In this document: positions 22,716-60,903 of the stretch, piece by piece
Position numbering within the stretch: the first letter of the stretch is position 1
How the letters are laid out: each line of letters opens with the position of its first letter
DNA from: Gammaproteobacteria bacterium
Lineage (GTDB): Bacteria; Pseudomonadota; Gammaproteobacteria; GCA-001735895
Assembly (NCBI GenBank): GCA_050298595.1
Contig: JBNKUM010000085.1
Span: forward strand, 226,035 to 290,034
Direction of reading: 5' to 3'
Length of the DNA: 64,000 bases
Position numbers and translations under genes: made by a program
Notes under the pieces: generated by a model
Databases searched by the model: none
The model's input: the letters and a program-made list of their open reading frames with translations, nothing else
What the model was told of the DNA's origin: nothing

Positions 22716-25700
22716 ATGAAAAAGAAAATCAAGGGAGTATCCAATACGCTGTATCCCATCATTGCACTGCTTGTATACCTGTTTTCCTGGGCAGTTACGG
22801 ATGTGTTCGCCGCCGATACGACCGATGACTATCTGACCACCAACGGTAGCATTATCTACGACGATGTCGGCAATTCGGTCAGGATAACCGGCATCGCCTG
22901 GTTCGGGTTCGAAACAGAAAACCAGGTTTATCATGGTCTGTGGAGTGTGAAGATGGAGACCGTTCTCGACCAGATAGCCAACCTGGGATTCAACGTAGTG
23001 CGGATTCCCCTGAGTGTCCAACTGGTCAATCAGTGGCGTAACGGCAACGGCGGAGAACCCAATAGCATCAACTACACTGCCAACCCTGCCCTGGAGGGCA
23101 TGACCAGCCTGCAAATCCTCGACGCTTCGATTGCCTACTGCAAACAGATCGGCCTGAAGGTCATGCTGGATATGCACCGTGTAGTCAATACGCAGATGTT
23201 GAACACCTGGTATGCGGACGGCTATCCGAGCAGTGACTTCGAAGCTAACTGGCAATGGCTGGCCAGCCATTACATCAACGACGATACGGTCATCGCCGCG
23301 GATCTGTTTAACGAACCGCATGGCAGCCCTGGCGATACCAACATAGCGAAATGGGACAGTTCCACAGATCAAAACAACTGGAAATACGAGGCCGAAAGGG
23401 TCGCCAATCTGATACTGGATGTAAACCCCAGGCTTTTGATCGTTGTCGAGGGAGTCGAAGCCACACCCAAAGATGGATACACATATACTGAAACGAACAG
23501 CGCTAACTATGACTCCACTTGGTGGGGCGGAAATCTGAGGCGTGCCCGGGATTATCCTATCAATCTGGGAAGCCGCCAGCGCCAGCTTGTCTATTCTCCC
23601 CATGATTACGGTCCCAGTGTCTTTGCCCAGCCCTGGTTTCATTCCGGTTTTACCAAAGAGACCCTGACCGCTGAGTGCTGGGAACCCAACTGGCTCTACA
23701 TCGCCACGCAGAGCCAGGCGCCGATACTCGTGGGGGAGTGGGGTGGAAGGTTAGATGGTGGAGACAACGAGAAATGGATGGGCGCACTGGCTGAAACCAT
23801 TGTTGAACACGACTTGAACCATACGTTTTGGTGCGTCAATCCCAACTCTGGTGATACCGGTGGCATACTGCTGGATGATTGGCAAAGCGTGGATACTGCC
23901 AAGTACAACCTGATCAAACCCACGCTCTGGCAGCAGAGCAACGGTAAATACATCGGGCTCGATCATCAAGTCAACCTGGGAGCCAATGGCACACACGTCG
24001 GTGCAGACACGATCCCAGGTGACGAAGTGTCGGTAACCGGCGTATCAGTCACGCCGACAACCACAACAGTCGAGGTGGGCGCCAGCGTGATGCTGAGTGC
24101 CACCGTGGCGCCGAGTGATGCTACCAACAAGGACGTTACCTGGGCATCGAGCGACAGCAGTGTCGCGATAGTAAGTACCGGAGGCGTCGTAACCGGTATA
24201 GCAACAGGCAATGCCGGGATCACTGTGACCACAGAGGATGGAGGCTACAGTAAGACCAGCGCAGTGACGGTGACGGTCACCGAAACAGGTGATGTGGCGA
24301 CACTGCCCCTCGTCATCAATGGAGAAGGTGATTTCTACCGCGTCACTTCGGGCGACATCACGAACATCAATTCATGGAACACGCAACTGGTGGAGATCAA
24401 TAGCGTCAACTTTACCAACACCTGGTCTAACCAGATGCCGCCCAGAATCGATGGAAACTACTATATCCACTATGTGGGCCTGGAACCCTGGTCTCATCTC
24501 GAAGTAAATGGGAGCAGTCAGGAGACACCGGTCACCGGCGTGGCGCTTACACTTGCCAGCGCATCGATCATGGTGGGAGATAGCACGACGTTCGTCGCCA
24601 CCGTCTCACCAGACAATGCGACGAATAAGCTCGTCGTTTGGAGTTCGAGCGATAACGATGTCGCAACAGTCAGTTCTACCGGTATAGTGACTGGTGTATC
24701 GATCGGCAGTTCCGTTATTACAGCAACAACGCAGGACGGTGGATTTACATCCACCGGCAATATCACCGTGAGCGATGAAACGGCCAACTTCACCCTGACT
24801 CTGGCGGCAATCGGTAACGGGACGACGAATCCCGTGTTGGGCTCACACATATATACCGCGGGCACCTCGCTCAGCGTGACGGCGATTCCCGCAACGGGTG
24901 CGACGTTTATGGGGTGGAGCGGCGCCGTCACCGGCACGACAAATCCCATAACTATCACGCTGGATGCGAACAAGACCCTGACCGCCAACTTCTCGGATGA
25001 TTTGAGTGGTCTCCCTGATGAATGTAGCAGTAGTGCGTGCAATTCGGCGACGCCCGTCTATCCAACGCTGTTCAACGATGGTGGGCTAGGAAACGTTACC
25101 ATGTACAGCACTGCATCCAGCAACGGCGGTGCCTGCAATTACGGCGCAACCAATGTCATGTATTACGCGGCGATCAACGTCAACGTCACGCCGGGTGACC
25201 TCGCGGGGCAATGGCAGAATGGAAAGATCTGTGGTCAGTGTGCAGAGGTTACCGTGCTGACCTCTCAGGGCCCTAAAACCGTAGTGGCCCGAATCATGGA
25301 CAAATGTTTCGATACCAACTGCGGCATTGATCTGGGCGGCGCCGCGCCCGCAACCGTAATGCTGGACGGCAGTGGTCGCTATGAGGGCAAATGGCGATTT
25401 GTCTCCTGCGACGGACATCCTGAAGTGTCCGATGGAGCAACGACCCTCTATGTGTTCCCTGGCAGCAACCTCTGGTGGTCCCGTGTTCATGTACGCAATG
25501 CTCCCATGGCCATTGAGACCATCGAATGGCAAGACGCTGCCGGCTCCGCAAAAGGCTTCATGCCTTATGCCAGCGATCCGGAGAATGCTTTTGAGGTACC
25601 GACCTCTGAAGTGCTTCAGTCCGGGATGTCGTCAGTTCTAATCACGGTGCACTATGTTGACGGGAGCACGATGTCGGTGACTCTCACGCCAGCTGAGTTG

Positions 25701-25736
25701 GGAACGGGGTCAGCCACGTATCCCCTGATCGATTGA
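22716..25736 (+). CDS. Secreted multimodular endoglucanase: GH5 + Ig-like + CBM64-like + Ig-like + B-repeat + expansin-like
   Basis: Signal peptide (VFA); GH5 motifs WFGFE, FNEPHG, YSPHDYG, VGEWGG; two Big_2-like repeats; INSWN...EIN...YYIHY..WSHLE module; C-terminal GGACNYG, CGQC, DKC, IDLG and WWSRVHVRN. Confidence 0.88.
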   Translation: MKKKIKGVSNTLYPIIALLVYLFSWAVTDVFAADTTDDYLTTNGSIIYDDVGNSVRITGIAWFGFETENQVYHGLWSVKMETVLDQIANLGFNVVRIPLSVQLVNQWRNGNGGEPNSINYTANPALEGMTSLQILDASIAYCKQIGLKVMLDMHRVVNTQMLNTWYADGYPSSDFEANWQWLASHYINDDTVIAADLFNEPHGSPGDTNIAKWDSSTDQNNWKYEAERVANLILDVNPRLLIVVEGVEATPKDGYTYTETNSANYDSTWWGGNLRRARDYPINLGSRQRQLVYSPHDYGPSVFAQPWFHSGFTKETLTAECWEPNWLYIATQSQAPILVGEWGGRLDGGDNEKWMGALAETIVEHDLNHTFWCVNPNSGDTGGILLDDWQSVDTAKYNLIKPTLWQQSNGKYIGLDHQVNLGANGTHVGADTIPGDEVSVTGVSVTPTTTTVEVGASVMLSATVAPSDATNKDVTWASSDSSVAIVSTGGVVTGIATGNAGITVTTEDGGYSKTSAVTVTVTETGDVATLPLVINGEGDFYRVTSGDITNINSWNTQLVEINSVNFTNTWSNQMPPRIDGNYYIHYVGLEPWSHLEVNGSSQETPVTGVALTLASASIMVGDSTTFVATVSPDNATNKLVVWSSSDNDVATVSSTGIVTGVSIGSSVITATTQDGGFTSTGNITVSDETANFTLTLAAIGNGTTNPVLGSHIYTAGTSLSVTAIPATGATFMGWSGAVTGTTNPITITLDANKTLTANFSDDLSGLPDECSSSACNSATPVYPTLFNDGGLGNVTMYSTASSNGGACNYGATNVMYYAAINVNVTPGDLAGQWQNGKICGQCAEVTVLTSQGPKTVVARIMDKCFDTNCGIDLGGAAPATVMLDGSGRYEGKWRFVSCDGHPEVSDGATTLYVFPGSNLWWSRVHVRNAPMAIETIEWQDAAGSAKGFMPYASDPENAFEVPTSEVLQSGMSSVLITVHYVDGSTMSVTLTPAELGTGSATYPLID

Positions 25737-25987
25737 TCTTTTTAAGGCAGGCCCTGTTGTACCTGCCTGCAGACTTTGTTGTCAAAACTTGCTGTGGTGC
25801 GTGGCTACAGCAATGTTTTGATGCCTTGCTGCAGCGTATAGAAGCATAAACGCTCCTTTCACCAAAGGCGAAAAGTATCAATACCCCTACTCTTGCACAT
25901 AGCAAGGAGCGCATTATGCCTAAAGCCAGGAAGACTCAGGTTTCTCTCGCGGCCACCCCTTATTACCACTGCACCTCTCGCTGCGTA

Positions 25988-26015
25988 CCCAAAGCGCTTC
26001 GCGGGGCAGGCTCTT
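25988..26015. repeat. 28-bp hairpin insertion in the transposase
   Basis: cccaaagcgcttcgcggggcaggctctt splits the SRCV|RRAF motif. Confidence 0.75.
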
Positions 26016-29334: not shown

Positions 29335-30516
29335 TCATGAGAGATTCGTCGCTTCATGCGAAATATAAGGTGTTAAAATCTTTCTGGATATCTGTATCCA
29401 TACTGGACTGGCAAGTAGGCTTAAAGCAATTAATGCAATCGTTGTCTGATAACCAAAGGTATTAATTAAACCAACCTGTAAACCCACCGTAGCCAGTATA
29501 AAACTGAACTCTCCAACCTGAGAAAGCAAGGCACCGGAGTACAGGCTTACTGCCCATTTATTACCCAGAATTTTTAATATAATGGCATTGATAAACGTAT
29601 TCGTCACTAACACCCCCAGCAACAGACTTGCCAATAGAGCCCAGTTTTCGCCGATAAATGTTATATCAATAATCATACCCATGGATACAAATAGCACAGC
29701 CACAAAAATAACCTTTAAAGGTTCCAGAGCATGCGTTACCCAGTCTGTCTCCTTAGCCGACGCAACAACCAACCCTGCGACAAACGCACCTAATGCAGCA
29801 GACAAGCCCAGCACACCAGTGATAAAGGCAAAGCCAAAGCAGATCAACAGTGCAGAAAACAGCTGCAACTCATGATCCTTCTTAATTATTTTTGCAAAAG
29901 GAAGCTTGAGGTGTTTACGCGACGCTACCCAGATAGCGAAGACCGTAATGACCATACCACCGACCAGTTGTTTATAAATTAACGCCTGCTCTGGTGACTC
30001 TCCGGATAACATGGAAATGATGATCAGCATGGGCACTACCGCTAAATCCTGCGCTAAAAGAATCAGCAATACATTCTGACCCGCTGCAGTTTTCAGTTCA
30101 TCGCTATCTTTGAGTAGCTTAAGCACAACAGCTGTGCTTGACAGGCTAATAACAAAACCCAAAAGCACTATCCTTGACAGACTCCAGTCCAGTAACACAC
30201 CGATTAGCCAGGTCGTTGCAACGCTCACAGCAATTTGAAAAAAGGTGCCAAAGGTAGCAATTCGCCAACCTCTTGCCAGTTGGTACGGAGAAACTTCCAT
30301 ACCAATAAAGAACAATAAAAGCGTCACACCTATGGCTCCCAGATGTTCAATCAAGGTCACATCACTGACTATACCCATACCCTCTGGTCCTATGACGATA
30401 CCGGTTATGATGTAACCGACTAGCTGAGGTTGTCTAAAAAACTGCAACAGCATGCCAATAGCTAGCACTACTGCGACGACACCAACGATCAACGGTAATA
30501 AAGGATCCAGATGCAT
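29335..30516 (-). CDS. CPA2 cation:proton antiporter
   Basis: LLFFIGME, SLSSTAVV, QDL and SQVGEF motifs. Confidence 0.9.
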   Translation of the reverse strand: MHLDPLLPLIVGVVAVVLAIGMLLQFFRQPQLVGYIITGIVIGPEGMGIVSDVTLIEHLGAIGVTLLLFFIGMEVSPYQLARGWRIATFGTFFQIAVSVATTWLIGVLLDWSLSRIVLLGFVISLSSTAVVLKLLKDSDELKTAAGQNVLLILLAQDLAVVPMLIIISMLSGESPEQALIYKQLVGGMVITVFAIWVASRKHLKLPFAKIIKKDHELQLFSALLICFGFAFITGVLGLSAALGAFVAGLVVASAKETDWVTHALEPLKVIFVAVLFVSMGMIIDITFIGENWALLASLLLGVLVTNTFINAIILKILGNKWAVSLYSGALLSQVGEFSFILATVGLQVGLINTFGYQTTIALIALSLLASPVWIQISRKILTPYISHEATNLS

Positions 30517-30525
30517 GACTTTTTG

Positions 30526-31122
30526 TTATTCAGCTTTTGGATGAATGTTAAAATTCGGATTAAATTCCTGGATTTTTCCAACTCCAGAATAATGGATTTT
30601 CGGGTTTATCATCGTCGGCCTCGCGATCAATAAATTATTTGGATAAATAATATATTCCCGATTATCACTAATCAGTCGGGTGTTAAATAAATTGATATCA
30701 GATATCACACCTTCGACATAATTATCCGCTTCCAGAATACGAATAAATGTGCCTCTTTTATAGGATTGATGAGAGAGCAGGATGAAAAATGCAGTAATGT
30801 TACTAAGTATCGACCAACTGGCGAATAGTGCCACACCAGTTAATGCAATAATGCCTGAGGATGCTGCCAGCAGCCATTGAAAGTCAAACCCCCAGATAAA
30901 TAATATAAGCACCAATACTACTACACCATTCAACAGTCTGAAAACAGCAACAGACTGTTTAAGCACTTTATTTTTGAGTGATCCCTGCTCGACCATGGCT
31001 TCAAGCCTGGGTATTGCCATTCTCTGCAAAACAACATAAAGCAGCAGAATAAATAAACTCAACACAACATTAACCTTGTACAGAGACAGCCAGTACAGTA
31101 TTTGTTCAAGAAACGGTTGCAC
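30526..31122 (-). CDS. MscS-family small mechanosensitive channel
   Basis: Three TM helices, GVALFASWSILSN and YPNN motifs. Confidence 0.85.
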   Translation of the reverse strand: MQPFLEQILYWLSLYKVNVVLSLFILLLYVVLQRMAIPRLEAMVEQGSLKNKVLKQSVAVFRLLNGVVVLVLILFIWGFDFQWLLAASSGIIALTGVALFASWSILSNITAFFILLSHQSYKRGTFIRILEADNYVEGVISDINLFNTRLISDNREYIIYPNNLLIARPTMINPKIHYSGVGKIQEFNPNFNIHPKAE

Positions 31123-31240: not shown

Positions 31241-31270
31241 AAAAAAGCCCGGAATGATCCAGGCTTTTTT
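31241..31270. terminator. Bidirectional rho-independent terminator ending the sulfur operon
   Basis: aaaaaagcccgga-atga-tccaggctttttt. Confidence 0.8.
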
Positions 31271-31305: not shown

Positions 31306-32283
31306 TTAATTCAACTTCGCAGGGTTGCTAGTTTCTCCGCCCAGCAGGCTGTATTCAACCAGTGAACCGTCATACAGACTTACATGCTTATTACCTATCA
31401 ATTCATGAGCCACAAACCAGACACCGGATGCCTGATGACCTGTATTACAGTAAGCAATGGTGCGGCCTTCAGGATTTAAGCCTTTAGCTTTCATAATCGA
31501 TTTATAGCTTGCAACGGGTAGAAAACGAGCTGAAGCACCATCTGCTCTGGTAATCAAATCTGGTGACAGATCTTTCGCACCCTCAAGATGTCCAGACAAT
31601 TCACCTTTCTTGGTGAATACGCCCATGTACTGATTCTGAGGACGCGCATCAGCAAACTGTACGTTCTTTCTTTTCAATCCATTTTTAACGTCTTCATAGG
31701 TGGCAAGAATACTTTTAATTTCCGTAGTTGCTACCCAGTTACCAGCTTTAACGGCTGGGGCATCTGTAGCCGCCGGCAAACCTGCTGCCAGCCATGCAGC
31801 CATACCGCCATCCAGAATCGCCATATTCTTTTGACCGTAATATTTAAACTGCCAGTACAGGCGAGCTGCTTCATTAACATCACCAGTACTCAAACCCGCT
31901 GGTACCAGAACAATAGTATCCCCCTTGTTAACACCCCAGGACTGAGCTAGCTTTTCAAAATCAGCTTTTAAAGGGATTAATTTTTTGACCTTTTTGCCTT
32001 CGACGGTACGATTAACACGAACCTTGCCGAAGTCAACCAGCCTGGCTCCAGGTACATGACCTGCAACAGTCTTGACCACAGTTTTCCCCTTTTCTGTTTT
32101 GACAACAGGGGCCTGGGTAAAAGTGGCAACCTTACCTGTTACCTGCAGAATAGTAACCTGATCCTTATGGGCATTTAGCCAGGTGGTATCAACCAGTGGT
32201 GAAACTGCTGATGAGGCCGAAGCGCTCTGTAATAACGCAGCTCCCAACAGCAAAACTGCAGGGATAGATTTTGTAAATTTCAT
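31306..32283 (-). CDS. Periplasmic tandem-domain sulfurtransferase (rhodanese/SseA-type)
   Basis: Signal peptide; GHVPGA, ILDGG, DARP, YCNTGH and LYDGS motifs. Confidence 0.9.
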   Translation of the reverse strand: MKFTKSIPAVLLLGAALLQSASASSAVSPLVDTTWLNAHKDQVTILQVTGKVATFTQAPVVKTEKGKTVVKTVAGHVPGARLVDFGKVRVNRTVEGKKVKKLIPLKADFEKLAQSWGVNKGDTIVLVPAGLSTGDVNEAARLYWQFKYYGQKNMAILDGGMAAWLAAGLPAATDAPAVKAGNWVATTEIKSILATYEDVKNGLKRKNVQFADARPQNQYMGVFTKKGELSGHLEGAKDLSPDLITRADGASARFLPVASYKSIMKAKGLNPEGRTIAYCNTGHQASGVWFVAHELIGNKHVSLYDGSLVEYSLLGGETSNPAKLN

Positions 32284-32333
32284 TCTTTACTCCTTAATAT
32301 ATTTTTGTTTAAAGATTATGTAACAACTAGAAA

Positions 32334-33062
32334 TCAACACGAAACTGCCGCCCCCTGCAGATCTGGATTCATCCGGATATGGGCTTCAGATTGCACTGAT
32401 TCAAGTATTTCTGACCAATCGAACGGCAACTCACTCAGGACATGGGTATCCCGGTCATCCAGAATGCCTGTTGACGACTGCCCTTGCTGCGTCCAGCCAA
32501 TTACCTGATCACGTCGCAGTAATAATTCTTCGATAAAAGGCCGCAGTAATGTCAGTAGTGCATCCAGCCATTGCAACACCTGCCAGGAAGGCCGTGCCCG
32601 ATTAATCTGCCAAAACCCATCATCCAGCAGCCGTAATACTTCTTCAGACGGTAACATTTGTTCATCAGTCACCCAGCCATTCGTTGCAAACAGGGCAACG
32701 GGTATTCCATAAGCTGACATTGATACTGCTGCCACATGGGTAAAAGCCTGCTCAGGAGCTGACCTTACAAACAAATGAAAATGCCCGTGTTCCTCCCGAC
32801 CCCATTCATCTGGGTCGTGAGCATGATAGTAAACCATGGCTCCGGTTTCAGGGTCACAACAATCATCATCGGGATAATGCGCCCAGGCCTGTATGGGTTT
32901 ATCCGCTTTATCGCGCAGCCATTCACTCACGATAGAAAGCTTATCATTTGCCAATGACTGATGAATCAAAGCAACAGACTCCGCAGCTGCAGCAACCTCA
33001 TCAAATGAACACTCATCGAGAGTCGTCAACCAGTAAGAGTAATCGGTGGAAACCTGATTCAC
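32334..33062 (-). CDS. DUF6969-like His-rich protein
   Basis: HYPDDD, YYHAH, EHGHFHLF and FATNGWVT motifs; no signal peptide. Confidence 0.7.
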   Translation of the reverse strand: MNQVSTDYSYWLTTLDECSFDEVAAAAESVALIHQSLANDKLSIVSEWLRDKADKPIQAWAHYPDDDCCDPETGAMVYYHAHDPDEWGREEHGHFHLFVRSAPEQAFTHVAAVSMSAYGIPVALFATNGWVTDEQMLPSEEVLRLLDDGFWQINRARPSWQVLQWLDALLTLLRPFIEELLLRRDQVIGWTQQGQSSTGILDDRDTHVLSELPFDWSEILESVQSEAHIRMNPDLQGAAVSC

Positions 33063-33080
33063 AGTGCGAATAATAATTGC

Positions 33081-33410
33081 TCAGCGTCGAACCGGTGCAC
33101 AGGGATTTTCGCCACGCTGTGCTGGAGCACAGGGGTTTTCACCGCGTGCCACTGGAGCACAGGGGTTTTCGCCGCGTGCCACTGGAGCGCATGGATTTTC
33201 TCCGCGTACCAACGGAGCACAGGGGTTTTCACCTCGCGCAGTGGGGGCACAGGGGTTTTCACCGCGTGCCATGGCCACCGGAATAAGCAGAGATGCGGCC
33301 GGTTCTGGCAACGGTGCCACACCCAGCATACCCATAGCCAGTGTTGGAATAGACAACGCGAGTAAATATTTACGTTTATTGCCAGAACGAGAAGATGATG
33401 TTTGTTTCAT
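33081..33410 (-). CDS. Secreted Cys-repeat peptide (6 x RGENPCAP)
   Basis: Basic N-terminus, hydrophobic stretch and AMA site followed by six 10-aa repeats; co-oriented in the operon. ATG 33410 has GGAG upstream; alternative start 33446. Confidence 0.85.
   Translation of the reverse strand: MKQTSSSRSGNKRKYLLALSIPTLAMGMLGVAPLPEPAASLLIPVAMARGENPCAPTARGENPCAPLVRGENPCAPVARGENPCAPVARGENPCAPAQRGENPCAPVRR
33091..33270. repeat. Six 30-bp coding tandem repeats
   Basis: Units such as actggagcacaggggttttcgccgcgtgcc. Variation within the RGENPCAP core is synonymous on the minus strand. Confidence 0.95.
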
Positions 33411-33460
33411 GATATTAAAAGTGACTCCATAATTGCATGCCGGCATAGCCGACGATAAAG

Positions 33461-34060
33461 CTAAATCCCAGCGTTTGTTTGTTCGTTAATATCGTCCTGA
33501 TTAAGATAACTTAAACGCTTTTCGAAGCGGCTACCCATCACAAATCCCGCAACCGCCAGCACCGTCAACGCTAACAAAACGGCCCACGGTGAAACACCGA
33601 GTAATTGAGGCAGGGTTTTTTCTGTCAACTTTCCAGCATTCAAAATATCCTGCATCCATTGCGCATCAAAATTTAGCGAAAAAACCCAGATACCGATCAC
33701 CATCCCGACTGCAAAAACAACCCCATCCATGCGTCCAGTCATAGCACCAACCACGGATGTACCGGGGCAGTAACCGCCCACTGCAAATCCAGCACCGACG
33801 AATGCGCCACCAAGCGCGGTAGCCGCGAGCATGGCAGGTGAAACATAAAAGCCATTCGAACCAAAGGTATTGTTTAACTGTAATAACTGTATGCCTAAAG
33901 ATGCCACCAGAATAGCGGTGAACATAACCTTGAAAACAGACCAGTCGCTGAAGCGAAATTGCGCGGTTAATTTACAGGGCGAACCAAAACCAGCCTGCTC
34001 AAGCACAAAACCAAATAACAACCCTGAAGCCAGTGCTGTTCCTGCAGTACCATAATCCAT
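33461..34060 (-). CDS. YeeE/YedE sulfur-compound transporter subunit
   Basis: GLLFGFVL, SPCK and GYCPGT motifs; hydrophobic. Confidence 0.88.
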   Translation of the reverse strand: MDYGTAGTALASGLLFGFVLEQAGFGSPCKLTAQFRFSDWSVFKVMFTAILVASLGIQLLQLNNTFGSNGFYVSPAMLAATALGGAFVGAGFAVGGYCPGTSVVGAMTGRMDGVVFAVGMVIGIWVFSLNFDAQWMQDILNAGKLTEKTLPQLLGVSPWAVLLALTVLAVAGFVMGSRFEKRLSYLNQDDINEQTNAGI

Positions 34061-34584
34061 TACCAGGCCCTCTTCATTAATACGCTAACCCCTAGACCAA
34101 CTAGAAAGAAGGTCAGTAAAAAAACAAATCCGCTAATGCCCAGCATCGCAGCTCCTGATAAACCAATACCGCTGGTACAGCCTGACGCTATGCGCGATCC
34201 TATACCTGCAAGAATGCCACCAAACAGCGCAAGCAGGAGACGGGGGGAGCGCCCAATTTTATGAGCACCTTCAAGCATGAGTTTAAATCTTCCCGAAGCA
34301 ACTGCGGCAAGTAAAGCGCCAATGGCGATACCCAAAACCTCGAAAACGATCCAGGATAATAGAGGGTTAGCTCCTTTTTTTAGCATAGGGCCAAGATATG
34401 CGTTTGCTTCTGTGACTTGAGGTGCAATTTCATCACCCAGTACAGCAGCAAAACGAGCAAACATACCTGACGCGCCAACACCATTCCCAACCAGAACAAA
34501 GGTCAGAATCAATACCAGACCCAGTACCACACCAGCAATATATGGCGGCCATAATGGCCGTTCAGAATCACCCATAAGTTTCAC
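34060..34584 (-). CDS. YeeE/YedE sulfur-compound transporter subunit
   Basis: WPPYIAG, GASG and GSRIASGCTSG motifs; TAATG overlap with its partner. Confidence 0.88.
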   Translation of the reverse strand: MKLMGDSERPLWPPYIAGVVLGLVLILTFVLVGNGVGASGMFARFAAVLGDEIAPQVTEANAYLGPMLKKGANPLLSWIVFEVLGIAIGALLAAVASGRFKLMLEGAHKIGRSPRLLLALFGGILAGIGSRIASGCTSGIGLSGAAMLGISGFVFLLTFFLVGLGVSVLMKRAW

Positions 34585-35070
34585 CCCATTTAAAAAACGT
34601 ATAAGTTCTTAATACCAAATCTCAGAAACTGCTACAGCCCATGCTAACCGGACAGGAAGTAGCAGTAGATATTATGGATAAGTCTTCAATATGACATTTA
34701 ACGGTGCAAGAGAATAGCACCAAGAATCAAGCTTAGAAAGTAAAAAGGGCCATTAAAGCCTCATCAGTTTTTTATATACATGCTCTATGTCAAGTTGATG
34801 AAATATTCACAGTTTTCGTGCATCAAAAAAGATTATAGGCAGATAAATTATTATTTGATTCTTTTAGAAAAATTTGTTTCATTTTAAAACTTATGGACGA
34901 GAATTTTATTAGTCAAAGTTACTTAGGTCCGTATTGAATTGAACCAGAGCTAAAAACACCGTAAAACATCTGCTTTTTTAGAAAGAAGGACTCCCTCCCC
35001 TTTGCGTAGAAAAAATACCACTGATTAATATACAGAAGAGTTCTAAAAGCAGGATAGTCAATGCTTTTTC

Positions 35071-37905
35071 TTATGCTAACACCTCGCCGCCTACACAAGT
35101 CTCAAAAGGCACTGGTTTACCGATAAAATACCCTTGACCATGAGTTACACCAAGCTCATTGATCATGCCTAACGTCTGCTGGTCACCCACAAATTCTGCA
35201 ATAACTTCCATACCAAACGCACTAATCATAGCCGACAGGCTTTTGACAAAAATTTGATCGTCGGGGTTACTAGTCAGATTTTTGATATAAGACCCGTCCA
35301 GTTTCACATAACTTAGTGGTAACTTTTTAAGGTAGGTAAACGAAGAAAAGCCAACCCCAAAATCATCAATTGCAACTCTGACTCCATTATTGGTTATCTG
35401 ATTCAGATTTTTTAACACTTGCTGAAAGTTTTCAATATACGCAGTTTCCGTCAACTCGATGATTAGCCGATTGCTATCTATTTTGTATTTATCAAGAGCC
35501 CCAAACACTAGCTCTGGAAAATTATCTGCCTGCATAGTAGGAGCAGATATATTGATAGCAATAGTTAGATCTTCACCCTTTGATAATCTATCATGTAATT
35601 TAGCTAAGGTATGTTCCAGCACCCATACATCGATATTACGAATTTCCCCAGTCTTTTCGGCCAAAGGAATAAAGATAGCAGGCGAAATATTAGTTCCACT
35701 TTCATCCTTTAGTCGAATCAACACCTCATGGTGCGATATCTGGTTTTTCTGGATATCTATTATCGGCTGATATACCAGCTTGAACGAACTGGTTTCGAGC
35801 GCATGTTTAATTGCCAGACTCAGGTTATGATCCTGTTTGATTTGGCATACTCGTTCATCACTAGAATCAAAAATATGCCACTGCCCTGCTCCTTTCTTTT
35901 TGGCATGATACATTGCCAGATCTGCATTGACGATCAGGCTTTGAGGATCATTCCCCTGTTCAGGAAAAAGAGAAGCGCCGATGCTGACGGTATATTGAAC
36001 ACGACGTCCTCCTCCAAGCTGAATACTACTGCTTAACTCTGTAGATAGTTTCTTCAATACTGCGCTCAAATCATCATGTTTGATATTCACCATTAGAATA
36101 GTAAATTCATCCCCAGCGAAACGACTTATCGTATCGGATGCACGAGTTAATTTACGCAGCTTACTGGCAATATCGACAAGCACCTGATCGCCTGCATTAT
36201 GACCATAAATATCATTGATTTGCTTAAACCGATTAACATCGATAAAAACTAAAGCTCCTCTGACACCACTTTCCAGCATTTGCGTAATCGTGGTATTAAA
36301 TGATCTTCGATTGCCAATACTGGTTAGACCATCGTTATTCGCCATCCAGCGCAGTTCATTTTCGGCCGCTTTCTGGTTCGTCTGATCAATTCCAATTGAA
36401 AGTATAATGGGACTCCCCAGCTCATCTTCTACTAAAGCGTGTGTCCAGGTAATAATTAAATTTTTATTATTTTTATCTACCAGATTATTCTCATGCTGAA
36501 ACACATCAGTTTTGTTGTGAATCAGCTTCTCAACCATTATTCTGAACTCTTCTATCTCGTGATCATGATAGATCAGGTCGGCAAAATTTAATGGGGGTTC
36601 ATCATGCAGGGTATCGAATTTTTTATTGGTGGAATAAATATTGAAGTCAAAATCTTGTGTAATAATAAAAATTTGCGAGTTATCAAATAGACGAGTCAGG
36701 AAAGACCTGGAGCGTGTTAAGGCAGCAACCTGTTCCTCCAGTGATTCATTTTTAAGGTGTACCTCCCTATGTAGTTTATCGAGTTCCCTGGCAACATACA
36801 CCGTACTGTGTTCTAGCGTACTTAGCTCATCCATGAAAAGACATTTCCTGCCAGACATTTTTTTTACTGCCTGGGAGAAGTTTTGCTGGGGTAACAGGTG
36901 CAAAGCCTCGGTGATTTTACTCAGTTTATTCATCGGTGTGTGTATTAGCAACAACATGATGAGTTCAGCTGACAGCAAACCCAGGCTGACTGTAGAGAAA
37001 ACGCGCCTGATATTGCTATTTAACGACTCATAAGCTGATGACCTGTCATCAACAGAAACGAACATAGTACGCTCACCCAAAATACTAACATCAGATAATT
37101 GCAGCCTGGAGATCAGATATTGCCTGCTGTCATTGATAAATAGTTCTTTCTGCGTGCTGCCATCTAATGTATTTCTATCCGAATATTTTTTAACAATGGG
37201 GAATATTCGATCAAAGTCAGTCACCGCCCAGGCATAAACCTTCCATTCAGGCAGATAACGCTCCGGATGCGGATTTCCAACGATTTCTTCAGCACCAAGC
37301 AGAATGCCGACAGCTGAATGTGAGAAGTTATAAAAGGCTCTGACTATATCAGCCATATTTTGCGCCAGTACAATCGTACCCGACTCCCCCTGTTCACTAA
37401 AAAATGGCTGAAGAACGATCATCAAACAGGATTGCTTACAGTAAATCAGGTTTGCAGGTTCATCCGATAATGAATTTTTATCAAGAACTCCCAAAATGGC
37501 ATGCTGCAGGTCAGCATTAAAAACCAGATCGGGTGTATTTACTGCTCCCAAAACCTGCTGCTCACTGTCATAGATTGCAAGATAATCTAGCCCAAGGTTG
37601 ATATGGTAAGAAAACCAGTCCTCCTCCAATGATCTCTTCAGGCTACCTGTATTACTGGTCAAACCATCTAGACTCTGCTGGACTATAGGCTTATCAGATA
37701 TCAATTCAGCAAACTGAGATAGCCTTAAGAAGCTTTCATTGACCAACTCATTTAATAAAACAGTTTGATTCGTATGCGACCGTTCGAGTCCAATATTAAA
37801 TTCTTTATGCTGTTCATCTATGAACTGCCAGATCCAGATAGCGGATATGCCTATAAGCACAAGACTTAGGAATACGACGGCTTTCCATTTAAGGCTAATA
37901 TACAT
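35071..37905 (-). CDS. Membrane sensor with PAS, GGDEF and EAL domains
   Basis: Two TM segments; RFAGDEF; EVL, ELTE, DDFGVG and KLDG motifs. Confidence 0.9.
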   Translation of the reverse strand: MYISLKWKAVVFLSLVLIGISAIWIWQFIDEQHKEFNIGLERSHTNQTVLLNELVNESFLRLSQFAELISDKPIVQQSLDGLTSNTGSLKRSLEEDWFSYHINLGLDYLAIYDSEQQVLGAVNTPDLVFNADLQHAILGVLDKNSLSDEPANLIYCKQSCLMIVLQPFFSEQGESGTIVLAQNMADIVRAFYNFSHSAVGILLGAEEIVGNPHPERYLPEWKVYAWAVTDFDRIFPIVKKYSDRNTLDGSTQKELFINDSRQYLISRLQLSDVSILGERTMFVSVDDRSSAYESLNSNIRRVFSTVSLGLLSAELIMLLLIHTPMNKLSKITEALHLLPQQNFSQAVKKMSGRKCLFMDELSTLEHSTVYVARELDKLHREVHLKNESLEEQVAALTRSRSFLTRLFDNSQIFIITQDFDFNIYSTNKKFDTLHDEPPLNFADLIYHDHEIEEFRIMVEKLIHNKTDVFQHENNLVDKNNKNLIITWTHALVEDELGSPIILSIGIDQTNQKAAENELRWMANNDGLTSIGNRRSFNTTITQMLESGVRGALVFIDVNRFKQINDIYGHNAGDQVLVDIASKLRKLTRASDTISRFAGDEFTILMVNIKHDDLSAVLKKLSTELSSSIQLGGGRRVQYTVSIGASLFPEQGNDPQSLIVNADLAMYHAKKKGAGQWHIFDSSDERVCQIKQDHNLSLAIKHALETSSFKLVYQPIIDIQKNQISHHEVLIRLKDESGTNISPAIFIPLAEKTGEIRNIDVWVLEHTLAKLHDRLSKGEDLTIAINISAPTMQADNFPELVFGALDKYKIDSNRLIIELTETAYIENFQQVLKNLNQITNNGVRVAIDDFGVGFSSFTYLKKLPLSYVKLDGSYIKNLTSNPDDQIFVKSLSAMISAFGMEVIAEFVGDQQTLGMINELGVTHGQGYFIGKPVPFETCVGGEVLA

Positions 37906-46794: not shown

Positions 46795-49700
46795 TTATAC
46801 CTCCATCTCTGTCTCATAACGACACACCCGGTTGCGCCCACCCTGCTTGGCGGCATATAGAGCAAGGTCTGCAGCTTTGACCAGCGCCTGCAGCGAGTTC
46901 GCTTGTTGCGGAAAGGTCGCCACACCAATACTCACACTGATTTTGATAGTCTTCCCGTCGCCGATATCGAAGGACTGAAGCTCTACCGACGCGCGTAAGC
47001 GCTCGGCAATTTTCATGGCCAGGGTCGCAACCGTCTCTGGCAGGATCAGCGTGATTTCCTCACCGCCGTAGCGGCACACGCGGTCGATGGAACGCGCCTG
47101 TTTCACCAGTAATTCGCTGATACCCTTGAGGATGGTATCACCGGCCTGGTGTCCGTAGGTATCGTTGACTTGTTTGAAGTAGTCGATGTCGAGCATCAGC
47201 AGCGACAGCTGGTGCTGGAAACGCTGTGTGCGGAAAATTTCGTCTTTCAGCAATGCATGAAACGTGCGATGGTTATACAGCTCGGTGAGGCCATCACGTC
47301 GCGCCTCTTCCTCTGCCAGTTCCGCACGCAAGCGCTCGCTAATGTCGCGCGCCACAGCAAGAACTCCCGCCATTTCACCCTTCTCATTGCGGTACACGCT
47401 GGCGTTGTAGAGCACCTTCGTCAGTGCCCCTGACGCATGCTTCATGGTGAGTGGATAATCTCTGACAGATCCCTTGGCGAACGCTTCCTGATAGCCCGCG
47501 AGCGCCCTGTCCGGCTCGGTGAAATATATCGAGAAATCGCTGCCTATCAGCAACTCGCGCTGCACGCCTGTCATCTGAATCGCCGCCTCGTTGACGTCCA
47601 TGATCCTGCCCTCCATGTTGATCGTTACCAGTGGATCCATGTCTGCCTCGATCAGGCTGCGTGCATACAGCAGTGCCTGGCGCTGCTGTTCTTCCGCCTG
47701 CTTGCGCTCTGTGATATCACGCACCGTGGCTAGCACTGAGGCCTGTCCCGTCTCAATGCGGGTCAGAAACACATCGGAGGGAAATGGTTCACCATTCAGG
47801 CGCTGATGTTCCCACTCGAAAAAGCTGTAACCCTCGCGCATGGCGGTCGCGATCAACTTCTGCGCGGCCTCGGCCGAGGAGCTTCCGTCGGGTTGTCGTT
47901 CAGTCGAAATATCCCATGGCCCAAGTGCGGTAAAGTCGGCCTTACTGGTGGCGCCGAACATTTGCAGTGTTGCCTGGTTGACGTCGGTGAAGCGCCAGGA
48001 CGGCGACTTTAGCACCATCAAGGCATCGCGCGAACTCTCGAACAACTGTCGGTATTTCTTCTCGCTTTCCAGCAATTCCAGTTCAGTCTGCTTTTCTTTG
48101 CTGATATCACGTATTGTGGCCTGCAGGAATGTCTGTCCTTTCGGCCCCATGCGGGTTCCCATCACACTGGCGGTGAATGTCTCACCGTTCAGGCGCCGAA
48201 GCTCCCACTCGAAAAGGAGAGAGCCTTCGCGCAAGGTAATCATCCCCAATTCCTGCGCTTTCTCTTTCGAAGAGCGCCCGTCCGGTTGTCGCTCGGGTGA
48301 AATATCCCATGGCCCCAGTGCGGTGAAATCAGCCTTGCTGGTGGCGCCAAACAGTTTCAGCGCGGCTTGATTCACCTCCGTGAAGTGCCAGGACGGTGGC
48401 CTGGCCACCATCAGGGCATCGCGTGAGCCCTCGAATAACTGCCGGAAATTCTCCTCGCCTTCGCGCAGCTCCTGTTCCGCCTGCTTGCGCTCGGTGATAT
48501 CCGTGAAAACGGCTAGCAGGAAGGATGTTTTCTTCACCATCATGACCCGACCATTGATGTCCGCATAGAAAATCGAGCCATCCTTTCTTTTCACAGGAGT
48601 ATCGGGTACATAGCTGATTTCGCCCTTGATATTCTGCTCGATCTGGCGATTGATGTTGTCCATCTCTTCTCTGGGGAGAATGTCCTCTACCCCCAACCCG
48701 AGAATCTCGTCGGGAGTATAGTTGAGCATGCGCTGTAACGAGGCATTGCTCATGCAGAATTGCCGGGTTTCGGTATCCATGAGGACGATTCCGTCCTTTA
48801 CCGAATCGAAAACCGTGCTAAGCAGCGCCTGAGATTCCTCCAGTTGCTGTGTGCGTGCCTGAACCCTGTCTTCCAGCTCATCATTCAACTGGCGGATTTT
48901 TTCTTCAATCTGCTTGCGCTCGGTAACGTCATGAAAAACGCCTACCAGTATGGGTCGTCCTGCTAGCACCATGGTGGTCGTGTTGACATCGGCATAAAAT
49001 ACCGATCCGTCCTTGCGTTGCACTGGCAGGTCAGGCGCCAGATGGATCTCACCTTTTGCCTGGCGTTCGACTTGTTGCAGCACTTCAGGAAAAGCTGCTG
49101 CTGGGTGAATGTCTTCGATGCCAAGACAACTCAATTCCTCCAACTGGTAACCCAGCATGTCACAAATTGCGCTATTCCCCATTACAAACTTCCTGGTTTG
49201 CGCATCTGCCACCAGGATACCGTCTATGGTGGCATTGAATACGGCCTTGAATCTGAGTTCAGCCTCTTCAAGATCCTGGGCCGCCTGCTTACGCTCCTCA
49301 ATTTCTCGCTTCAGTCCGAAATTAGCCTTTTCCAGGTCCTCCGTCATGTTGGCCAGAGACAGGGCCTGGTTGCGCGACCTTGTCAACGGCAGGAGCACGT
49401 AAAAAAGCAGCAGACTGATAGCCGTGCCAAGCAACAGGATGCTGTTCACCTTACCGGCATCGATGGTTTCTTCAAAATAGGGTGAGGACTTGAAAACCAG
49501 CAGCCAACGACGACCGGCATATTCCAGGATGGACTGGTAGGTGGCAAAATGTGCGTGACCGGGATGGGAGAGGTTCGACTCCATGTCCCCGCTGGGATAA
49601 AGTAAGGCCTCTTGAAGCGGTTCACCCCCATCGAAAATCTGAAGATCAACATACTCCCGCTTATCTATCAGAAGCCCCTGCATCAGATCATTCATGCGGA

Positions 49701-50505
49701 AGGGACTGTAAACATATCCCATTAAGGCCTCACGCCTCTGTTCAGGGGTATCTGCGACTTCTCCATTACGGTAAACCGGCAGATACATAAGAAAGCCCGC
49801 CTGAACATCTTTTTCTGTTTCCTGAAGCAGGGTCACCTTGCCACTCAGAGCGGGTAAACCGGTGTCCCTGGCCATCATCATGGCTTCTCTACGCGTGGCT
49901 TCGGAGAACATGTCATAACCAAAAGCCCGCTGGTTTCGCCAGTCAAAAGGCTCCAGGAAAATAATGGAGGTGTATTCCGGGCGTTCTCCATCGGGGCGGA
50001 TCTCATATTCGGGAAAACCCTCATCCCGAATTTGACGGATATGAGTACTCTTTTCTGCAGCAAGAATTCTTCTGGAAAAGCCAAGCCCTTGAACACCTTG
50101 ATAGTGTTTATCAATCTGCAGTGCGGTTACATAGGTCCGCCATTTAGCCCGAGTCACTTCCTCGGAGCCTGCGAAAAGACCTGCGCCGCTTTGCAGCAGA
50201 AATGCACAGGTATGCAGACGGTCGCGAAGGGCCATTTCAATTGTCTGACTGCGAAAAACAAAATGCTCATTGGCGCTTTGCATCACGGCACTCCTGGCGA
50301 TATACCAGGAGAAAAAAGTGACCACCAGAGACGCCAACAGGACTATCCAGGCTATAGCTTTACCCTGAAAAATGGATGGCAGCGGTGAAGTATCCTCGTC
50401 AGACGTTTGGGCAGCAGAGAAAGCGGGCTGCGAAGCAGTCGATTCCTGGATATCCTGGTTTTTCATATTATGCTCATTCTTATCCATGATGATCACGTCC
50501 GGCAC
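46795..50505 (-). CDS. CHASE + multi-PAS diguanylate cyclase
   Basis: CHASE (NQRAFGYDM, SGKVTLLQE), five PAS-like repeats, DIDYFK.VND and RYGGEEI; GC-rich compared with its neighbours. Confidence 0.92.
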   Translation of the reverse strand: MPDVIIMDKNEHNMKNQDIQESTASQPAFSAAQTSDEDTSPLPSIFQGKAIAWIVLLASLVVTFFSWYIARSAVMQSANEHFVFRSQTIEMALRDRLHTCAFLLQSGAGLFAGSEEVTRAKWRTYVTALQIDKHYQGVQGLGFSRRILAAEKSTHIRQIRDEGFPEYEIRPDGERPEYTSIIFLEPFDWRNQRAFGYDMFSEATRREAMMMARDTGLPALSGKVTLLQETEKDVQAGFLMYLPVYRNGEVADTPEQRREALMGYVYSPFRMNDLMQGLLIDKREYVDLQIFDGGEPLQEALLYPSGDMESNLSHPGHAHFATYQSILEYAGRRWLLVFKSSPYFEETIDAGKVNSILLLGTAISLLLFYVLLPLTRSRNQALSLANMTEDLEKANFGLKREIEERKQAAQDLEEAELRFKAVFNATIDGILVADAQTRKFVMGNSAICDMLGYQLEELSCLGIEDIHPAAAFPEVLQQVERQAKGEIHLAPDLPVQRKDGSVFYADVNTTTMVLAGRPILVGVFHDVTERKQIEEKIRQLNDELEDRVQARTQQLEESQALLSTVFDSVKDGIVLMDTETRQFCMSNASLQRMLNYTPDEILGLGVEDILPREEMDNINRQIEQNIKGEISYVPDTPVKRKDGSIFYADINGRVMMVKKTSFLLAVFTDITERKQAEQELREGEENFRQLFEGSRDALMVARPPSWHFTEVNQAALKLFGATSKADFTALGPWDISPERQPDGRSSKEKAQELGMITLREGSLLFEWELRRLNGETFTASVMGTRMGPKGQTFLQATIRDISKEKQTELELLESEKKYRQLFESSRDALMVLKSPSWRFTDVNQATLQMFGATSKADFTALGPWDISTERQPDGSSSAEAAQKLIATAMREGYSFFEWEHQRLNGEPFPSDVFLTRIETGQASVLATVRDITERKQAEEQQRQALLYARSLIEADMDPLVTINMEGRIMDVNEAAIQMTGVQRELLIGSDFSIYFTEPDRALAGYQEAFAKGSVRDYPLTMKHASGALTKVLYNASVYRNEKGEMAGVLAVARDISERLRAELAEEEARRDGLTELYNHRTFHALLKDEIFRTQRFQHQLSLLMLDIDYFKQVNDTYGHQAGDTILKGISELLVKQARSIDRVCRYGGEEITLILPETVATLAMKIAERLRASVELQSFDIGDGKTIKISVSIGVATFPQQANSLQALVKAADLALYAAKQGGRNRVCRYETEMEV

Positions 50506-58063: not shown

Positions 58064-58575
58064 TGTGGTCACTGCTAAAAAGAGCTATTTATTTGTTAAG
58101 TTACATCATTCGAATGCACCTGCTTCTTCCATTCCTTATAGACCGTATAAGCAGAGGCATAGATCAGCCTGGGTACACGGGTTTTAACATACCTGTCTGT
58201 ATCGCCGATCTGGGTATTACCTACTCTACTGAAATTTATTAATGTTTTTAAATCGAAACTCTACTGTCTTCTGCAATCACTGATAAAGCAGTTTTACTTG
58301 ACAGCAGATATACCGCCTAAATCTAAATTGGATGAGAAAAATTCTCAGGGCTAACAGGAAATATGTCGCAAGCTGAAATAAAAGCAATTATGCTAGGATT
58401 AGATATAAATGCCTGCTAAGCCGGATAGAAAATAATTATGTTCAACATTTTTTGAGAGTTATTCATCATCAACAAAATTTTATCCTTAAAACGCTATATC
58501 TTAAACGACAATACCATTCCAAAACAATATAGAGAACGGGTTATACAGGGTCAGATAGATTACGTTTTTGATACT

Positions 58576-60240: not shown

Positions 60241-60258
60241 AAAACTGGGAAAATTGAA

Positions 60259-60903
60259 TTATTCTAAGAGGCCGTTTTTTCTAGCCTTCGCGGCAGCCTC
60301 GGTTCGGTTGCCGACACCTAGCGCCTTAAATATCGCGGTGATATGGACTCGTACAGTGCTTTCAGTGCAGCCCAGGTACTCAGCAATCATTTTATTGGGT
60401 TTACCCTGGCCAACCAGTAATAAGACCTGTTGCTGTCTTGGAGTTAAAGAAACATCGACAGGGTTAACTTGATTTAGATTCTTCTGCGTTTTAATGCCGG
60501 AAATGAGCGCAGGAGGTATATATTTCCCACCAGATAAAACCAGTTTAATGGCATTAATCATGATTTCTTCGTCTTCAGATTTATGAATAAATCCACAAGC
60601 GCCGTTTTCCATCGCATGAAATATATCAGAAGAATTATCACTAGCAGAAACTATGATCACAGGAACTAAGGATAGCGATTGCTTAATATACTGAAGAATT
60701 AGAAAACCATTCTTATCGGGCAAATTTATATCCAGTAGCACCAAATCCAAATCACTTTGGCTGGATAAAATATTCATCGCGTCAGAATAAGATTCTGCTT
60801 CATAGATGATGATTTTTTTACTCAGGTTTTGTAATGCTAACTTTGTTCCCGCTCTAACGAGACTATGATCATCAACAATAAGTATCCTTAATACACCATC
60901 CAT
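60259..60903 (-). CDS. NarL/LuxR-family response regulator
   Basis: IVDDH and LLDINLP receiver motifs; LTPRQQQVL HTH. Confidence 0.92.
   Translation of the reverse strand: MDGVLRILIVDDHSLVRAGTKLALQNLSKKIIIYEAESYSDAMNILSSQSDLDLVLLDINLPDKNGFLILQYIKQSLSLVPVIIVSASDNSSDIFHAMENGACGFIHKSEDEEIMINAIKLVLSGGKYIPPALISGIKTQKNLNQVNPVDVSLTPRQQQVLLLVGQGKPNKMIAEYLGCTESTVRVHITAIFKALGVGNRTEAAAKARKNGLLE

Follow-up and report, generated by a model that had tools for sequence, protein, structure and literature searches.

A cysteine-array precursor and a DUF6969 protein as a candidate two-gene core within a sulfur-linked operon of a gammaproteobacterium

We analysed a 64,000-nucleotide stretch of DNA from a Gammaproteobacteria bacterium (GenBank assembly GCA_050298595.1, contig JBNKUM010000085.1, forward-strand positions 226,035 to 290,034; hereafter the window), in which five minus-strand genes packed within 31306-34584 encode the two halves of a split YeeE/YedE-family transporter, a small protein built of cysteine repeats (the array precursor), a DUF6969 protein and a periplasmic-type rhodanese. 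We propose that an exported or membrane-tethered cysteine-array protein and a cytoplasmic DUF6969 protein with a histidine cluster form a previously undescribed two-gene core, which in this sulfur-linked five-gene operon would work as a periplasm-to-cytoplasm sulfur module; we give this reading as a whole a probability of about 45%. The neighbourhood of DUF6969 and the peptide is more than chance. The conserved core is the pair of peptide and DUF6969, to which YeeE-type genes and the rhodanese are accessory.

The five-gene operon and its array precursor

The five genes are separated by gaps of -1, 50, 18 and 50 nt, the start of the 199-amino-acid (aa) YeeE half overlapping the stop of the 174-aa half, and they end at an intrinsic terminator that folds better than all of 200 shuffled sequences (z -5.59) and was not listed by a simple consensus scan. 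The features, in the direction of transcription, are as follows.

34585-35070, minus strand: upstream intergenic region of 486 nt, the expected home of the operon promoter/operator
34060-34584, minus strand: YeeE/YedE-family membrane protein, 174 aa, with a GCTSG cysteine motif (PF04143, E 1.9e-22)
33461-34060, minus strand: YeeE/YedE-family membrane protein, 199 aa, with a GGYCPGT cysteine motif (PF04143, E 6.6e-18)
33081-33410, minus strand: cysteine-array precursor, 109 aa from the likely start ATG 33410, in no Pfam or NCBIfam family
33087-33266, minus strand: array of six 10-residue RGENPCAPxx units within the precursor (Tandem Repeats Finder, period 30, 5.8 copies)
32334-33062, minus strand: DUF6969 protein, 242 aa (PF22308, E 8.3e-57)
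31306-32283, minus strand: tandem-domain rhodanese, 325 aa, periplasmic type (PF00581 in two stretches)
31241-31270, minus strand: intrinsic terminator, a 13-bp hairpin followed by a U-run (-21.5 kcal/mol)

An earlier note on this DNA, made from the letters alone, had described five packed minus-strand genes ending at a strong terminator, the third of them a signal peptide ending in AMA followed by six RGENPCAP repeats with synonymously varying codons, and the next one a gene with HYP, YYHAH and EHGHFH motifs and no signal peptide. This description stands in every part, and the identities that the note had suggested for DUF6969, the periplasmic rhodanese and the split YeeE agree with the profile matches given below.

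From ATG 33410 the precursor starts with a basic n-region, which leads into a hydrophobic segment; a PLPEP motif and an A-M-A site then precede the array. Its sequence reads MKQTSSSRSGNKRKYLLALSIPTLAMGMLGVAPLPEPAASLLIPVAMA and then the six RGENPCAPxx units, with PLPEPAASLLIPVAMA standing between the hydrophobic segment and the repeats; an alternative upstream ATG at 33446 would give a precursor of 121 aa (33081-33446). Signal peptides were assigned by eye, here and in all other proteins. Between the six units, codon usage differs at seven of the eight core positions, and because the pairwise differences comprise 58 synonymous and no nonsynonymous changes, the repeat core is under purifying selection. 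The same motif is invariant across seven relatives, in which the copy number ranges from 6 to 11; six relatives of the peptide were found in databases, called 'hypothetical protein' wherever they are named at all. Within the 5.49-Mb host genome, 62 small stop-to-stop segments contain any one cysteine tripeptide at least three times, mostly as microsatellite frames, and exactly one segment, the window peptide, contains three or more PC[AGS][APL] motifs.

Profile searches place the arrays in no known family: none of nine array peptides tested matches an NCBIfam model, and among ten tested against Pfam the sole match was a spurious one to amelogenin (E 0.031). The window peptide has no SoxY domain (PF13501) by Pfam search. 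Three familiar signals were considered and set aside, namely the heme-regulatory CP motif (the order in the array is PC, not CP), the sulfatase CxPxR motif (CAPxR units are only occasional) and a PEP-CTERM-like signal (the order of the parts is reversed).

A mirror ORF (open reading frame) of 122 aa with GAQGFSPR repeats lies opposite the array gene (33064-33432, plus strand) and is an artefact of the repeat. It is one residue longer than the 121-aa ORF, so that gene callers could choose it; one database protein (P0022) has an N-terminal extension of this kind.

The 486-nt leader holds no ORF on the operon strand, nor was a sigma-70-like site found on this strand upstream of 34584. Scans for Rfam families and tRNAs gave no matches anywhere in the window, and therefore no riboswitch was found in the leader.

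Pairing of DUF6969 genes with cysteine arrays

DUF6969 is a single-copy gene in the host genome and patchy among its relatives: it occurs in 5 of 13 other genomes of the genus, in none of 11 genomes from the family's other genera and in none of 16 genomes from the class's other families, and in 36 of the 401 genomes of an even sample of the class. A first set of 41 loci was assembled from the window, three same-genus loci and 37 non-window matches from the 401-genome sample, each with 7 kb on either side; ORF calling favoured frames conserved between loci and was heuristic in GC-rich loci. One locus (L036) lies at a contig end, leaving 40 that could be assessed. A same-strand exported cysteine-repeat ORF accompanies DUF6969 at 38 of these, usually directly upstream; it stands two genes upstream in L038 and downstream in L042, and four cases are weak, with two motifs only or irregular units (L045, L050, L062 and L064). 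The remaining same-genus loci, L002 and L004, viewed at 1.5 kb on either side only, also carry NPCAP arrays.

A second set was drawn from named Alpha-, Beta- and Gammaproteobacteria by scanning one genome per species. This yielded at least 600 pattern matches, among them at least 590 confirmed relatives, of which the best 80 were kept as loci, and the search patterns (EHGHFH[TL]F and F[AT][TV]N[RG]WVT[GDA]) bias the composition of the set. Under a uniform rule (at least three PC[AGSMNK] motifs within 80 residues, on the same strand and within 2.5 kb), 50 of the best 80 loci were positive, 28 negative and two had too little upstream sequence; applied to the 5.49-Mb host genome, the rule selects one segment. 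Three of the rule-negative loci have arrays by eye: L097 and L147 (both on the opposite strand) and L122 (KCAP units). Five genomes with an array-less DUF6969 locus were tested further, and three of them have NPCA arrays elsewhere in the genome.

The reverse test started from the arrays. A DNA pattern for three NPCA motifs matches 14 of the 401 class genomes, and its backwards control none; DUF6969 is present in nine of the 14, compared with 36 of all 401, and one match (G247) is a non-coding repeat with an in-frame stop. The enrichment of DUF6969 homologs beside cysteine-repeat ORFs, which the earlier note had named as the check on its idea, was thus found in both locus sets and in the reverse direction.

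In a maximum-likelihood tree of 36 DUF6969 sequences, whose hosts belong to many different taxonomic families, the clades follow the type of peptide. The type changes five times on the tree (the minimum is four), compared with 20.7 times on average after shuffling of the labels, and none of 200 shuffles came as low as five. One genome has two DUF6969 paralogs, each with its own peptide type.

Four types of array can be told apart. Type A, RG[EGA]NPCAPxx in 6-11 copies, is found in the window's genus, Thiohalomonadaceae, Thiodiazotropha and Halothiobacillus. In type B, a hydrophobic segment at the N-terminus is followed by DHTRH(R/K)LPEP, which is strongly conserved, and by 2-9 (S/N/A)PC(G/S)L units; type C consists of (K/A)NPCAA hexamers and CNPCNP units, some of them rich in methionine and histidine (MMDAHPCMPE in L040); and type D comprises nearly pure Cys/Gly/Ser stretches such as CSGCSGC and GCCGCC. 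The juxtamembrane DHTRH(R/K)LPEP of the type B peptides (L061-L070, L059, L060 and L072) has its counterpart in PLPEP at the equivalent place of type A, and the order of basic region, transmembrane (TM) segment and PEP in both is the mirror image of a PEP-CTERM signal.

The same cysteine motifs also form long N- and/or C-terminal tails on signal-peptide proteins, the fused domains being SoxA/TsdA-like cytochrome c (PF21342), cytochrome P460-like (with scores at the cut-off or close to it) and DSP/BLH-phosphatase-like. SoxA/TsdA-like monohaem cytochromes c with NPCAA(K)/CNPCNP arrays at both ends stand directly upstream of DUF6969 (L081:2486-3364, L101:2530-3411, L116:2023-3285, L037:5438-6208 and similar others), the one in L116 with 52 PC motifs. 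Cytochrome P460-like proteins with N-terminal NPCA, DPCA or GPCG arrays (L142:1584-2645, L097:968-2035, L137:4366-5460, L147:2177-3346 and L169:1240-2346) lie near DUF6969 or elsewhere in DUF6969-positive genomes; the three that were run against Pfam reach the cut-off or fall just short of it, and L147 and L169 were assigned by eye. Periplasmic DSP/BLH-phosphatase-like proteins (DUF442-type) with 4-6 NPCA(P/A) units after the signal peptide are encoded upstream of DUF6969 in Thioclava and Marinobacteraceae (L115:2472-3356, L112:2583-3464, also L108 and L130). The earlier note had taken NPC as the core motif, which is right for the window; other lineages use PC[GS]L or CSGC, and arrays also occur as tails on whole proteins.

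The DUF6969 protein and the sulfur-linked accessory genes

The window protein matches the PF22308 profile over positions 2-200 of 201 with 192.5 bits (cut-off 27), carries the HYP, YYHAH and EHGHFH motifs and has no hydrophobic N-terminus or signal peptide. In an alignment of 36 of the 41 first-set sequences, 15 residues are invariant (H80, H82, E91, H92, G93, H94, F95, H96, F98, H109, G119, N128, W130, V131 and W165), six histidines and one glutamate among them, and no cysteine is conserved. In a confident AlphaFold2 model (pLDDT 91.5, pTM 0.89), an antiparallel sheet of five strands is preceded by a helix and followed by further helices. Three neighbouring strands bear the HxH, HxHxH and H motifs at alternating positions; in this model the motifs would lie on a common side of the sheet and could hold one or two metal ions.

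Searches for kin of known function gave little. A PDB sequence search with the DUF6969 profile had no matches at E <= 10, and Foldseek against the PDB none at E <= 1e-3, whether the query was the full model or its core predicted on its own (pLDDT 89.6). The best VIA Z was 5.8 for the full model, to helical ribosomal proteins, and 5.5 for the core (7rag_A, root-mean-square deviation 3.8, 61 residues aligned), a generic sheet. Kinship with cupin, MBL, VOC, carbonic anhydrase or frataxin-like folds is thus not claimable from Foldseek and VIA, and a missing match is no proof of a new fold. By hhalign, DUF6969 has no detectable relation to MNIO (probability 0.35%) or to a DUF2063 protein (0.31%), and the ESM Atlas returned DUF6969 clusters only, with nothing left once PF22308 was skipped. 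A predicted complex of DUF6969 with the precursor scored below the mark (ipSAE 0.02 and 0.01) and is used as evidence neither way.

The family itself is large: a search of 1.84 billion representatives gives 1130 clusters at E <= 1e-3, or 509 at E <= 1e-30, nearly all of them single-domain proteins of 200-290 aa. Two rare architectures (P0001, 497 aa, and P0040, 625 aa) are a tandem duplication and an arrangement of DUF6969, coiled coil, TM helix and bacterial SH3, in the latter of which the domain precedes the TM helix and an SH3 domain of periplasmic type. A search for longer homologous proteins found no DUF6969 fusion, which is weak evidence.

The 174-aa protein matches PF04143 at profile positions 176-306 of 310 (80.7 bits, cut-off 27) and the 199-aa protein at 3-150 of 310 (65.7 bits, cut-off 27; also DUF6691 at 1.4e-07), and because of these ranges the two are taken as the C- and N-terminal halves of a split transporter. 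TsuA has one conserved cysteine per half, Cys91 and Cys293 (PMC11582611; this and the other papers cited below are drawn on for the portions available). The GCTSG and GGYCPGT motifs visible in the two halves here are candidates for these positions, and the TsuA models NF052577 and NF041049 score far below their equivalog cut-offs (44 bits against 400 and 42.5 against 645). The rhodanese matches PF00581 in two stretches (68.2 bits, cut-off 22.2), has an intact CNTGHQA active-site loop at residue 279 and a signal-like N-terminus, MKFTKSIPAVLLLGAALLQSASA; the ExtH model NF040901 gives it 81.9 bits against a cut-off of 200.

Across loci these genes come and go; the closest relatives of the window system share its five-gene arrangement. 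The rhodanese lies directly downstream of DUF6969 in 19 of the 41 first-set loci, where all 19 copies begin with a signal-like segment and show the loop CN[ST]G[HNQ]xA at about residue 280; in the second set it occurs in five of 80 loci, which are all five type A loci and only those. PF04143 is the commonest upstream family (22 of 110 ORFs, three upstream ORFs being taken per locus and split pairs counted twice), full-length at about 400 aa in type B loci and split in type A, and YeeE-like genes lie within 3.5 kb in 17 of the 80 second-set loci, across several types. Thioredoxin-family proteins rank next among first-set neighbours. Of the composite system put forward in the earlier note (NPC-repeat peptide, DUF6969, rhodanese and YeeE), the peptide-DUF6969 pair therefore remains as the general part, and the rhodanese, at 19/41 and 5/80, and YeeE as accessories.

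Pfam finds no TusA-like gene among the five operon genes. Outside the window the host genome has two SoxY genes (contigs C94 and C8; L156 and L157) and three MNIO (PF05114) genes (contigs C115, C78 and C22; L158-L160), and because of these we regard the host as a sulfur oxidiser with MNIO-type systems of its own. The closest relatives of the window system among the matches listed are likewise sulfur oxidisers: a metagenome-assembled genome of Thiohalomonadaceae (59% identity), Candidatus Thiodiazotropha (55%) and Halothiobacillaceae (48%), the last including Halothiobacillus.

The operon is flanked on the minus strand, at 29335-31122 and 35071-37905, by genes for an Na+/H+ exchanger-family protein, a small MscS-like channel and a 944-aa protein; the flank is partly syntenic in other operon-carrying genomes of the genus. 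The 944-aa protein clusters with same-genus flank genes and is by eye of GGDEF/EAL type, and GGDEF and EAL domains each occur in three of the 110 upstream neighbour ORFs. Outliers in the composition of the window are GC contents of 0.552 (24001-26000), 0.529 (48001-50000) and 0.336 (58001-62000), against about 0.40-0.47 elsewhere; the operon block at 32001-34000 is also elevated, at 0.489.

Known systems, proposed working and rival explanations

The closest analogues are bufferins and oxazolins (BufA/HvfA precursor, MNIO enzyme BufB/HvfB and DUF2063 partner BufC/HvfC), an analogy already drawn in the earlier note and an apt one. There, Sec signal peptides replace classical leaders, the working residues are cysteines, often in short repeats (EGKCG), precursors can be small peptides or large proteins with many repeats or several domains, and an iron enzyme modifies them in the cytoplasm before export to the periplasm, where the products act (PMC12452194). 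The same order of events is proposed here from the genes. The partner in this case is DUF6969, and the operon has neither a PF05114 nor a DUF2063-type gene; the motifs are NPCA(P/A), PC[GS]L and CSGC, not EGKCG, and the accessory genes are a rhodanese and YeeE, not DoxX or sigma/anti-sigma pairs.

A second analogue is the proposed passage of sulfane sulfur from SoxYZ, a periplasmic carrier with its sulfur on a flexible-arm cysteine, through the YeeE-like SoxT into the cytoplasm (PMC11582611). Some arrays described above are fused to SoxA/TsdA-like cytochrome c domains, which adds to this likeness. The array protein, however, has no SoxY domain, the two SoxY genes of the host are separate, and its cysteines number at least six in tandem motifs, against the single C-terminal carrier cysteine of SoxY. 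That carrier cysteine sits in a C-terminal GGCGG. The cytoplasmic partner also differs, being DUF6969 and not a rhodanese, DsrE or TusA.

As in PmpA/PmpB, the two membrane genes are halves of a full-length YeeE, each with a cysteine motif; they encode 174 and 199 aa, compared with about 130 aa reported (PMC11582611). The TsuA scores are far from their cut-offs, no TusA-like TsuB gene is present, and the available portions of the same paper describe no periplasmic cysteine-array partner for TsuA or PmpAB. PspE-type periplasmic rhodaneses move sulfur from thiosulfate to thiophilic acceptors (PMC2593051), whereas the enzyme here is a 325-aa tandem-domain protein of its own subfamily, always next to DUF6969 cassettes, and its physiological acceptor would be the co-encoded array.

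By comparison of genes, the system thus appears to resemble the bufferin/oxazolin systems and the SoxYZ-SoxT relay and to be a member of neither. A literature search found no paper on DUF6969 or PF22308 and none discussing the array motifs, although the supplements of PMC12452194 and PMC11582611 could list such genes; in their available text, the MNIO survey (PMC12452194) and the YeeE/SoxT paper (PMC11582611) make no mention of either. Because of this, and because the operon lacks MNIO, DUF2063 and SoxY and the TsuA and ExtH cut-offs are not reached, we rate the partnership of cysteine array and DUF6969 as a new kind of system, with the five-gene form as its sulfur-linked version.

How the parts might work together can be sketched from their predicted compartments, since the array protein and the rhodanese begin with signal-like sequences and DUF6969 does not. 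DUF6969 would be a metal-dependent protein that acts on the cysteines of the array while the precursor is still in the cytoplasm, ahead of Sec export. Once exported, the array would stay close to the inner membrane, anchored through the hydrophobic segment at its N-terminus, and act as a multivalent thiol-based carrier, which the rhodanese may load with sulfane sulfur from thiosulfate-type donors, or unload. The array would then give sulfur to, or take it from, the YeeE channel, and the split YeeE would pass sulfur across the membrane. Metal binding, catalysis and peptide contact by DUF6969 are what we infer in this scheme, as is the identity of the cargo; for the latter, sulfane sulfur is suggested by the accessory genes and by relatives that oxidise sulfur.

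Several points weigh against this proposal. Two first-set loci (L046 and L071) have no adjacent array, 28 of the 80 second-set loci fail the uniform rule, and about 25 of these, mostly of Alphaproteobacteria, have no array within 3.5 kb. In this array-less branch (L083-L155, for example L127, L129 and L143) the place upstream is taken by a signal-peptide FGE-sulfatase-like or TAXI-type gene, with DUF2336 downstream (one example of each verified by Pfam, the others by eye). Conversely, four genomes that are 90-99% complete (G104, G205, G216 and G409) have NPC arrays and no DUF6969 that could be found, and because of them arrays do not strictly need DUF6969. Their arrays (L161 in G104, L162 in G409, L163 in G205 and L164 in G216) lie beside multihaem c554/MtrC-like cytochromes, with further neighbours that include full-length YeeE-like PF04143 genes (in two of the four), one FGE-sulfatase-like gene, a thioredoxin fusion, a YHS-domain gene and a DUF302 gene; they may belong to a related periplasmic redox module. 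Relatives are not independent of one another, so the tree and the counts overstate the support. On the chemical side, cysteines that accept sulfur from a rhodanese must remain thiols, which sits badly with a heterocycle-type modification; if a modification does exist, it may leave the sulfur atom unconsumed, since a rhodanese acceptor is expected to be a free thiol. The thioredoxin-family neighbours also fit free, redox-cycling thiols, and the Met/His-rich arrays of L040, L137 and G104 point to Cu(I) rather than sulfur. Any action of DUF6969 on the peptide, be it through a metal, by binding or by changing a residue, would be a prediction from genetic linkage, and DUF6969 may be an escort, not an enzyme.

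A bolder form of the proposal is possible, and we put it forward tentatively. DUF6969 would found an enzyme class of its own, metal-dependent and without kinship to the MNIO, YcaO, LanC or radical-SAM families, that installs a novel cysteine-derived group on tandem (N/S)PC or CSGC motifs in Sec-exported peptides and in the tails of periplasmic cytochromes; this would be a new family of ribosomally synthesised and post-translationally modified peptides, or of protein modification, in at least 590 alpha-, beta- and gammaproteobacterial species, whose products would be multivalent periplasmic carriers feeding sulfane sulfur or thiophilic metals to YeeE-type channels.

The peptide may instead go unmodified. 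In such a relay the array would be a plain thiol carrier, the rhodanese and YeeE would move the cargo inward, and DUF6969, without ever touching the peptide, would receive or oxidise the imported sulfur in the place of TsuB/YeeD or a persulfide dioxygenase. The predicted compartments allow this, the free thiols it calls for suit the rhodanese and thioredoxin neighbours, and it has a published precedent in the route from periplasmic carrier through YeeE-like importer to cytoplasmic sulfur proteins (PMC11582611). The absence of a TusA-like gene among the five operon genes would leave that place free for DUF6969, and YeeE-type genes recur both near DUF6969 (the 17 of 80 loci above) and with arrays in two of the four genomes without detected DUF6969. 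We nevertheless consider it rather doubtful: the tightest and most widespread link is that of peptide and DUF6969, not of transporter and DUF6969, and at many loci of types C and D the two genes form a cassette that has neither YeeE nor rhodanese in its vicinity. Moreover, DUF6969 has no conserved cysteine for a sulfur relay and no likeness in sequence or fold to known sulfur dioxygenases, though weak or missing matches are no proof.

Metal buffering, which we name in summary as the main rival, would make the arrays periplasmic chelators in the manner of metallothioneins or bufferins, binding Cu(I) or another thiophilic metal and prepared or escorted by DUF6969, with the rhodanese and YeeE as add-ons supplying or removing sulfur. 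Bufferins and oxazolins are indeed Sec-signal cysteine precursors that bind copper in the periplasm (PMC12452194; PMC11626156), and a complete bufferin-type operon (DUF2282 precursor, MNIO, DUF2063 and DoxX-like) follows immediately downstream of the DUF6969 cassette in L041 (7824-10520), and probably in its close kin L093, where only the MNIO gene was located, by tblastn at about 2232-3017. The MMDAHPCMPE units of L040, the MPMM spacers of L137 and the NPCAMG..KKGMG units of G104 would suit copper, the nearly pure Cys/Gly/Ser peptides of type D are metallothionein-like, and a YHS-domain gene stands beside one array and an NrsF-like gene (by eye only) beside another. For the window this explanation is unlikely, since its array has neither Met nor His, its accessory genes are sulfur genes, its closest relatives among the matches listed oxidise sulfur, and no copper-resistance family stands at the top of the neighbour tallies.

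Far less probable is a role in selenium or tellurium handling, in which array thiols would take up selenite as selenotrisulfides, the rhodanese would carry perselenide and the YedE-like halves would import it. The best NCBIfam matches do lie in this direction (ExtH for the rhodanese, 4.7e-23; YedE/FdhT and seleno_YedE for the membrane halves), but with 81.9 bits against 200, 37 against 350 and 28.7 against 200 they fall far under the curated cut-offs and therefore indicate superfamily membership only, and no selenoprotein or selD context appears among the tallied neighbours. That the repeat ORF is no gene, only a DNA repeat read in frame beside genes it met by coincidence, can practically be set aside: a mirror ORF exists and low-complexity repeats often open frames (G247 and many host-genome segments are examples), but the 58 to 0 ratio in the core, the signal-like N-terminus, the operon spacing of 18-50 nt and the conservation of frame and motif across many families of the class sample and the named Alpha-, Beta- and Gammaproteobacteria all speak for a gene.

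If the sulfur-module proposal is true, an uncharacterised protein family of 1130 clusters, present in at least 590 species, would gain a function, and a second, unrelated enzyme family for signal-peptide cysteine precursors would stand besides the MNIO enzymes. Genome annotation would gain as well, small array genes being easily overlooked or called on the wrong strand. The arrays on SoxA/TsdA-like and P460-like cytochromes would be a new accessory module of periplasmic redox enzymes in sulfur, iron and ammonia oxidisers. For sulfur oxidisers such as the host, the proposal would offer a testable answer to how sulfur is handed over from periplasmic proteins to YeeE-type importers.

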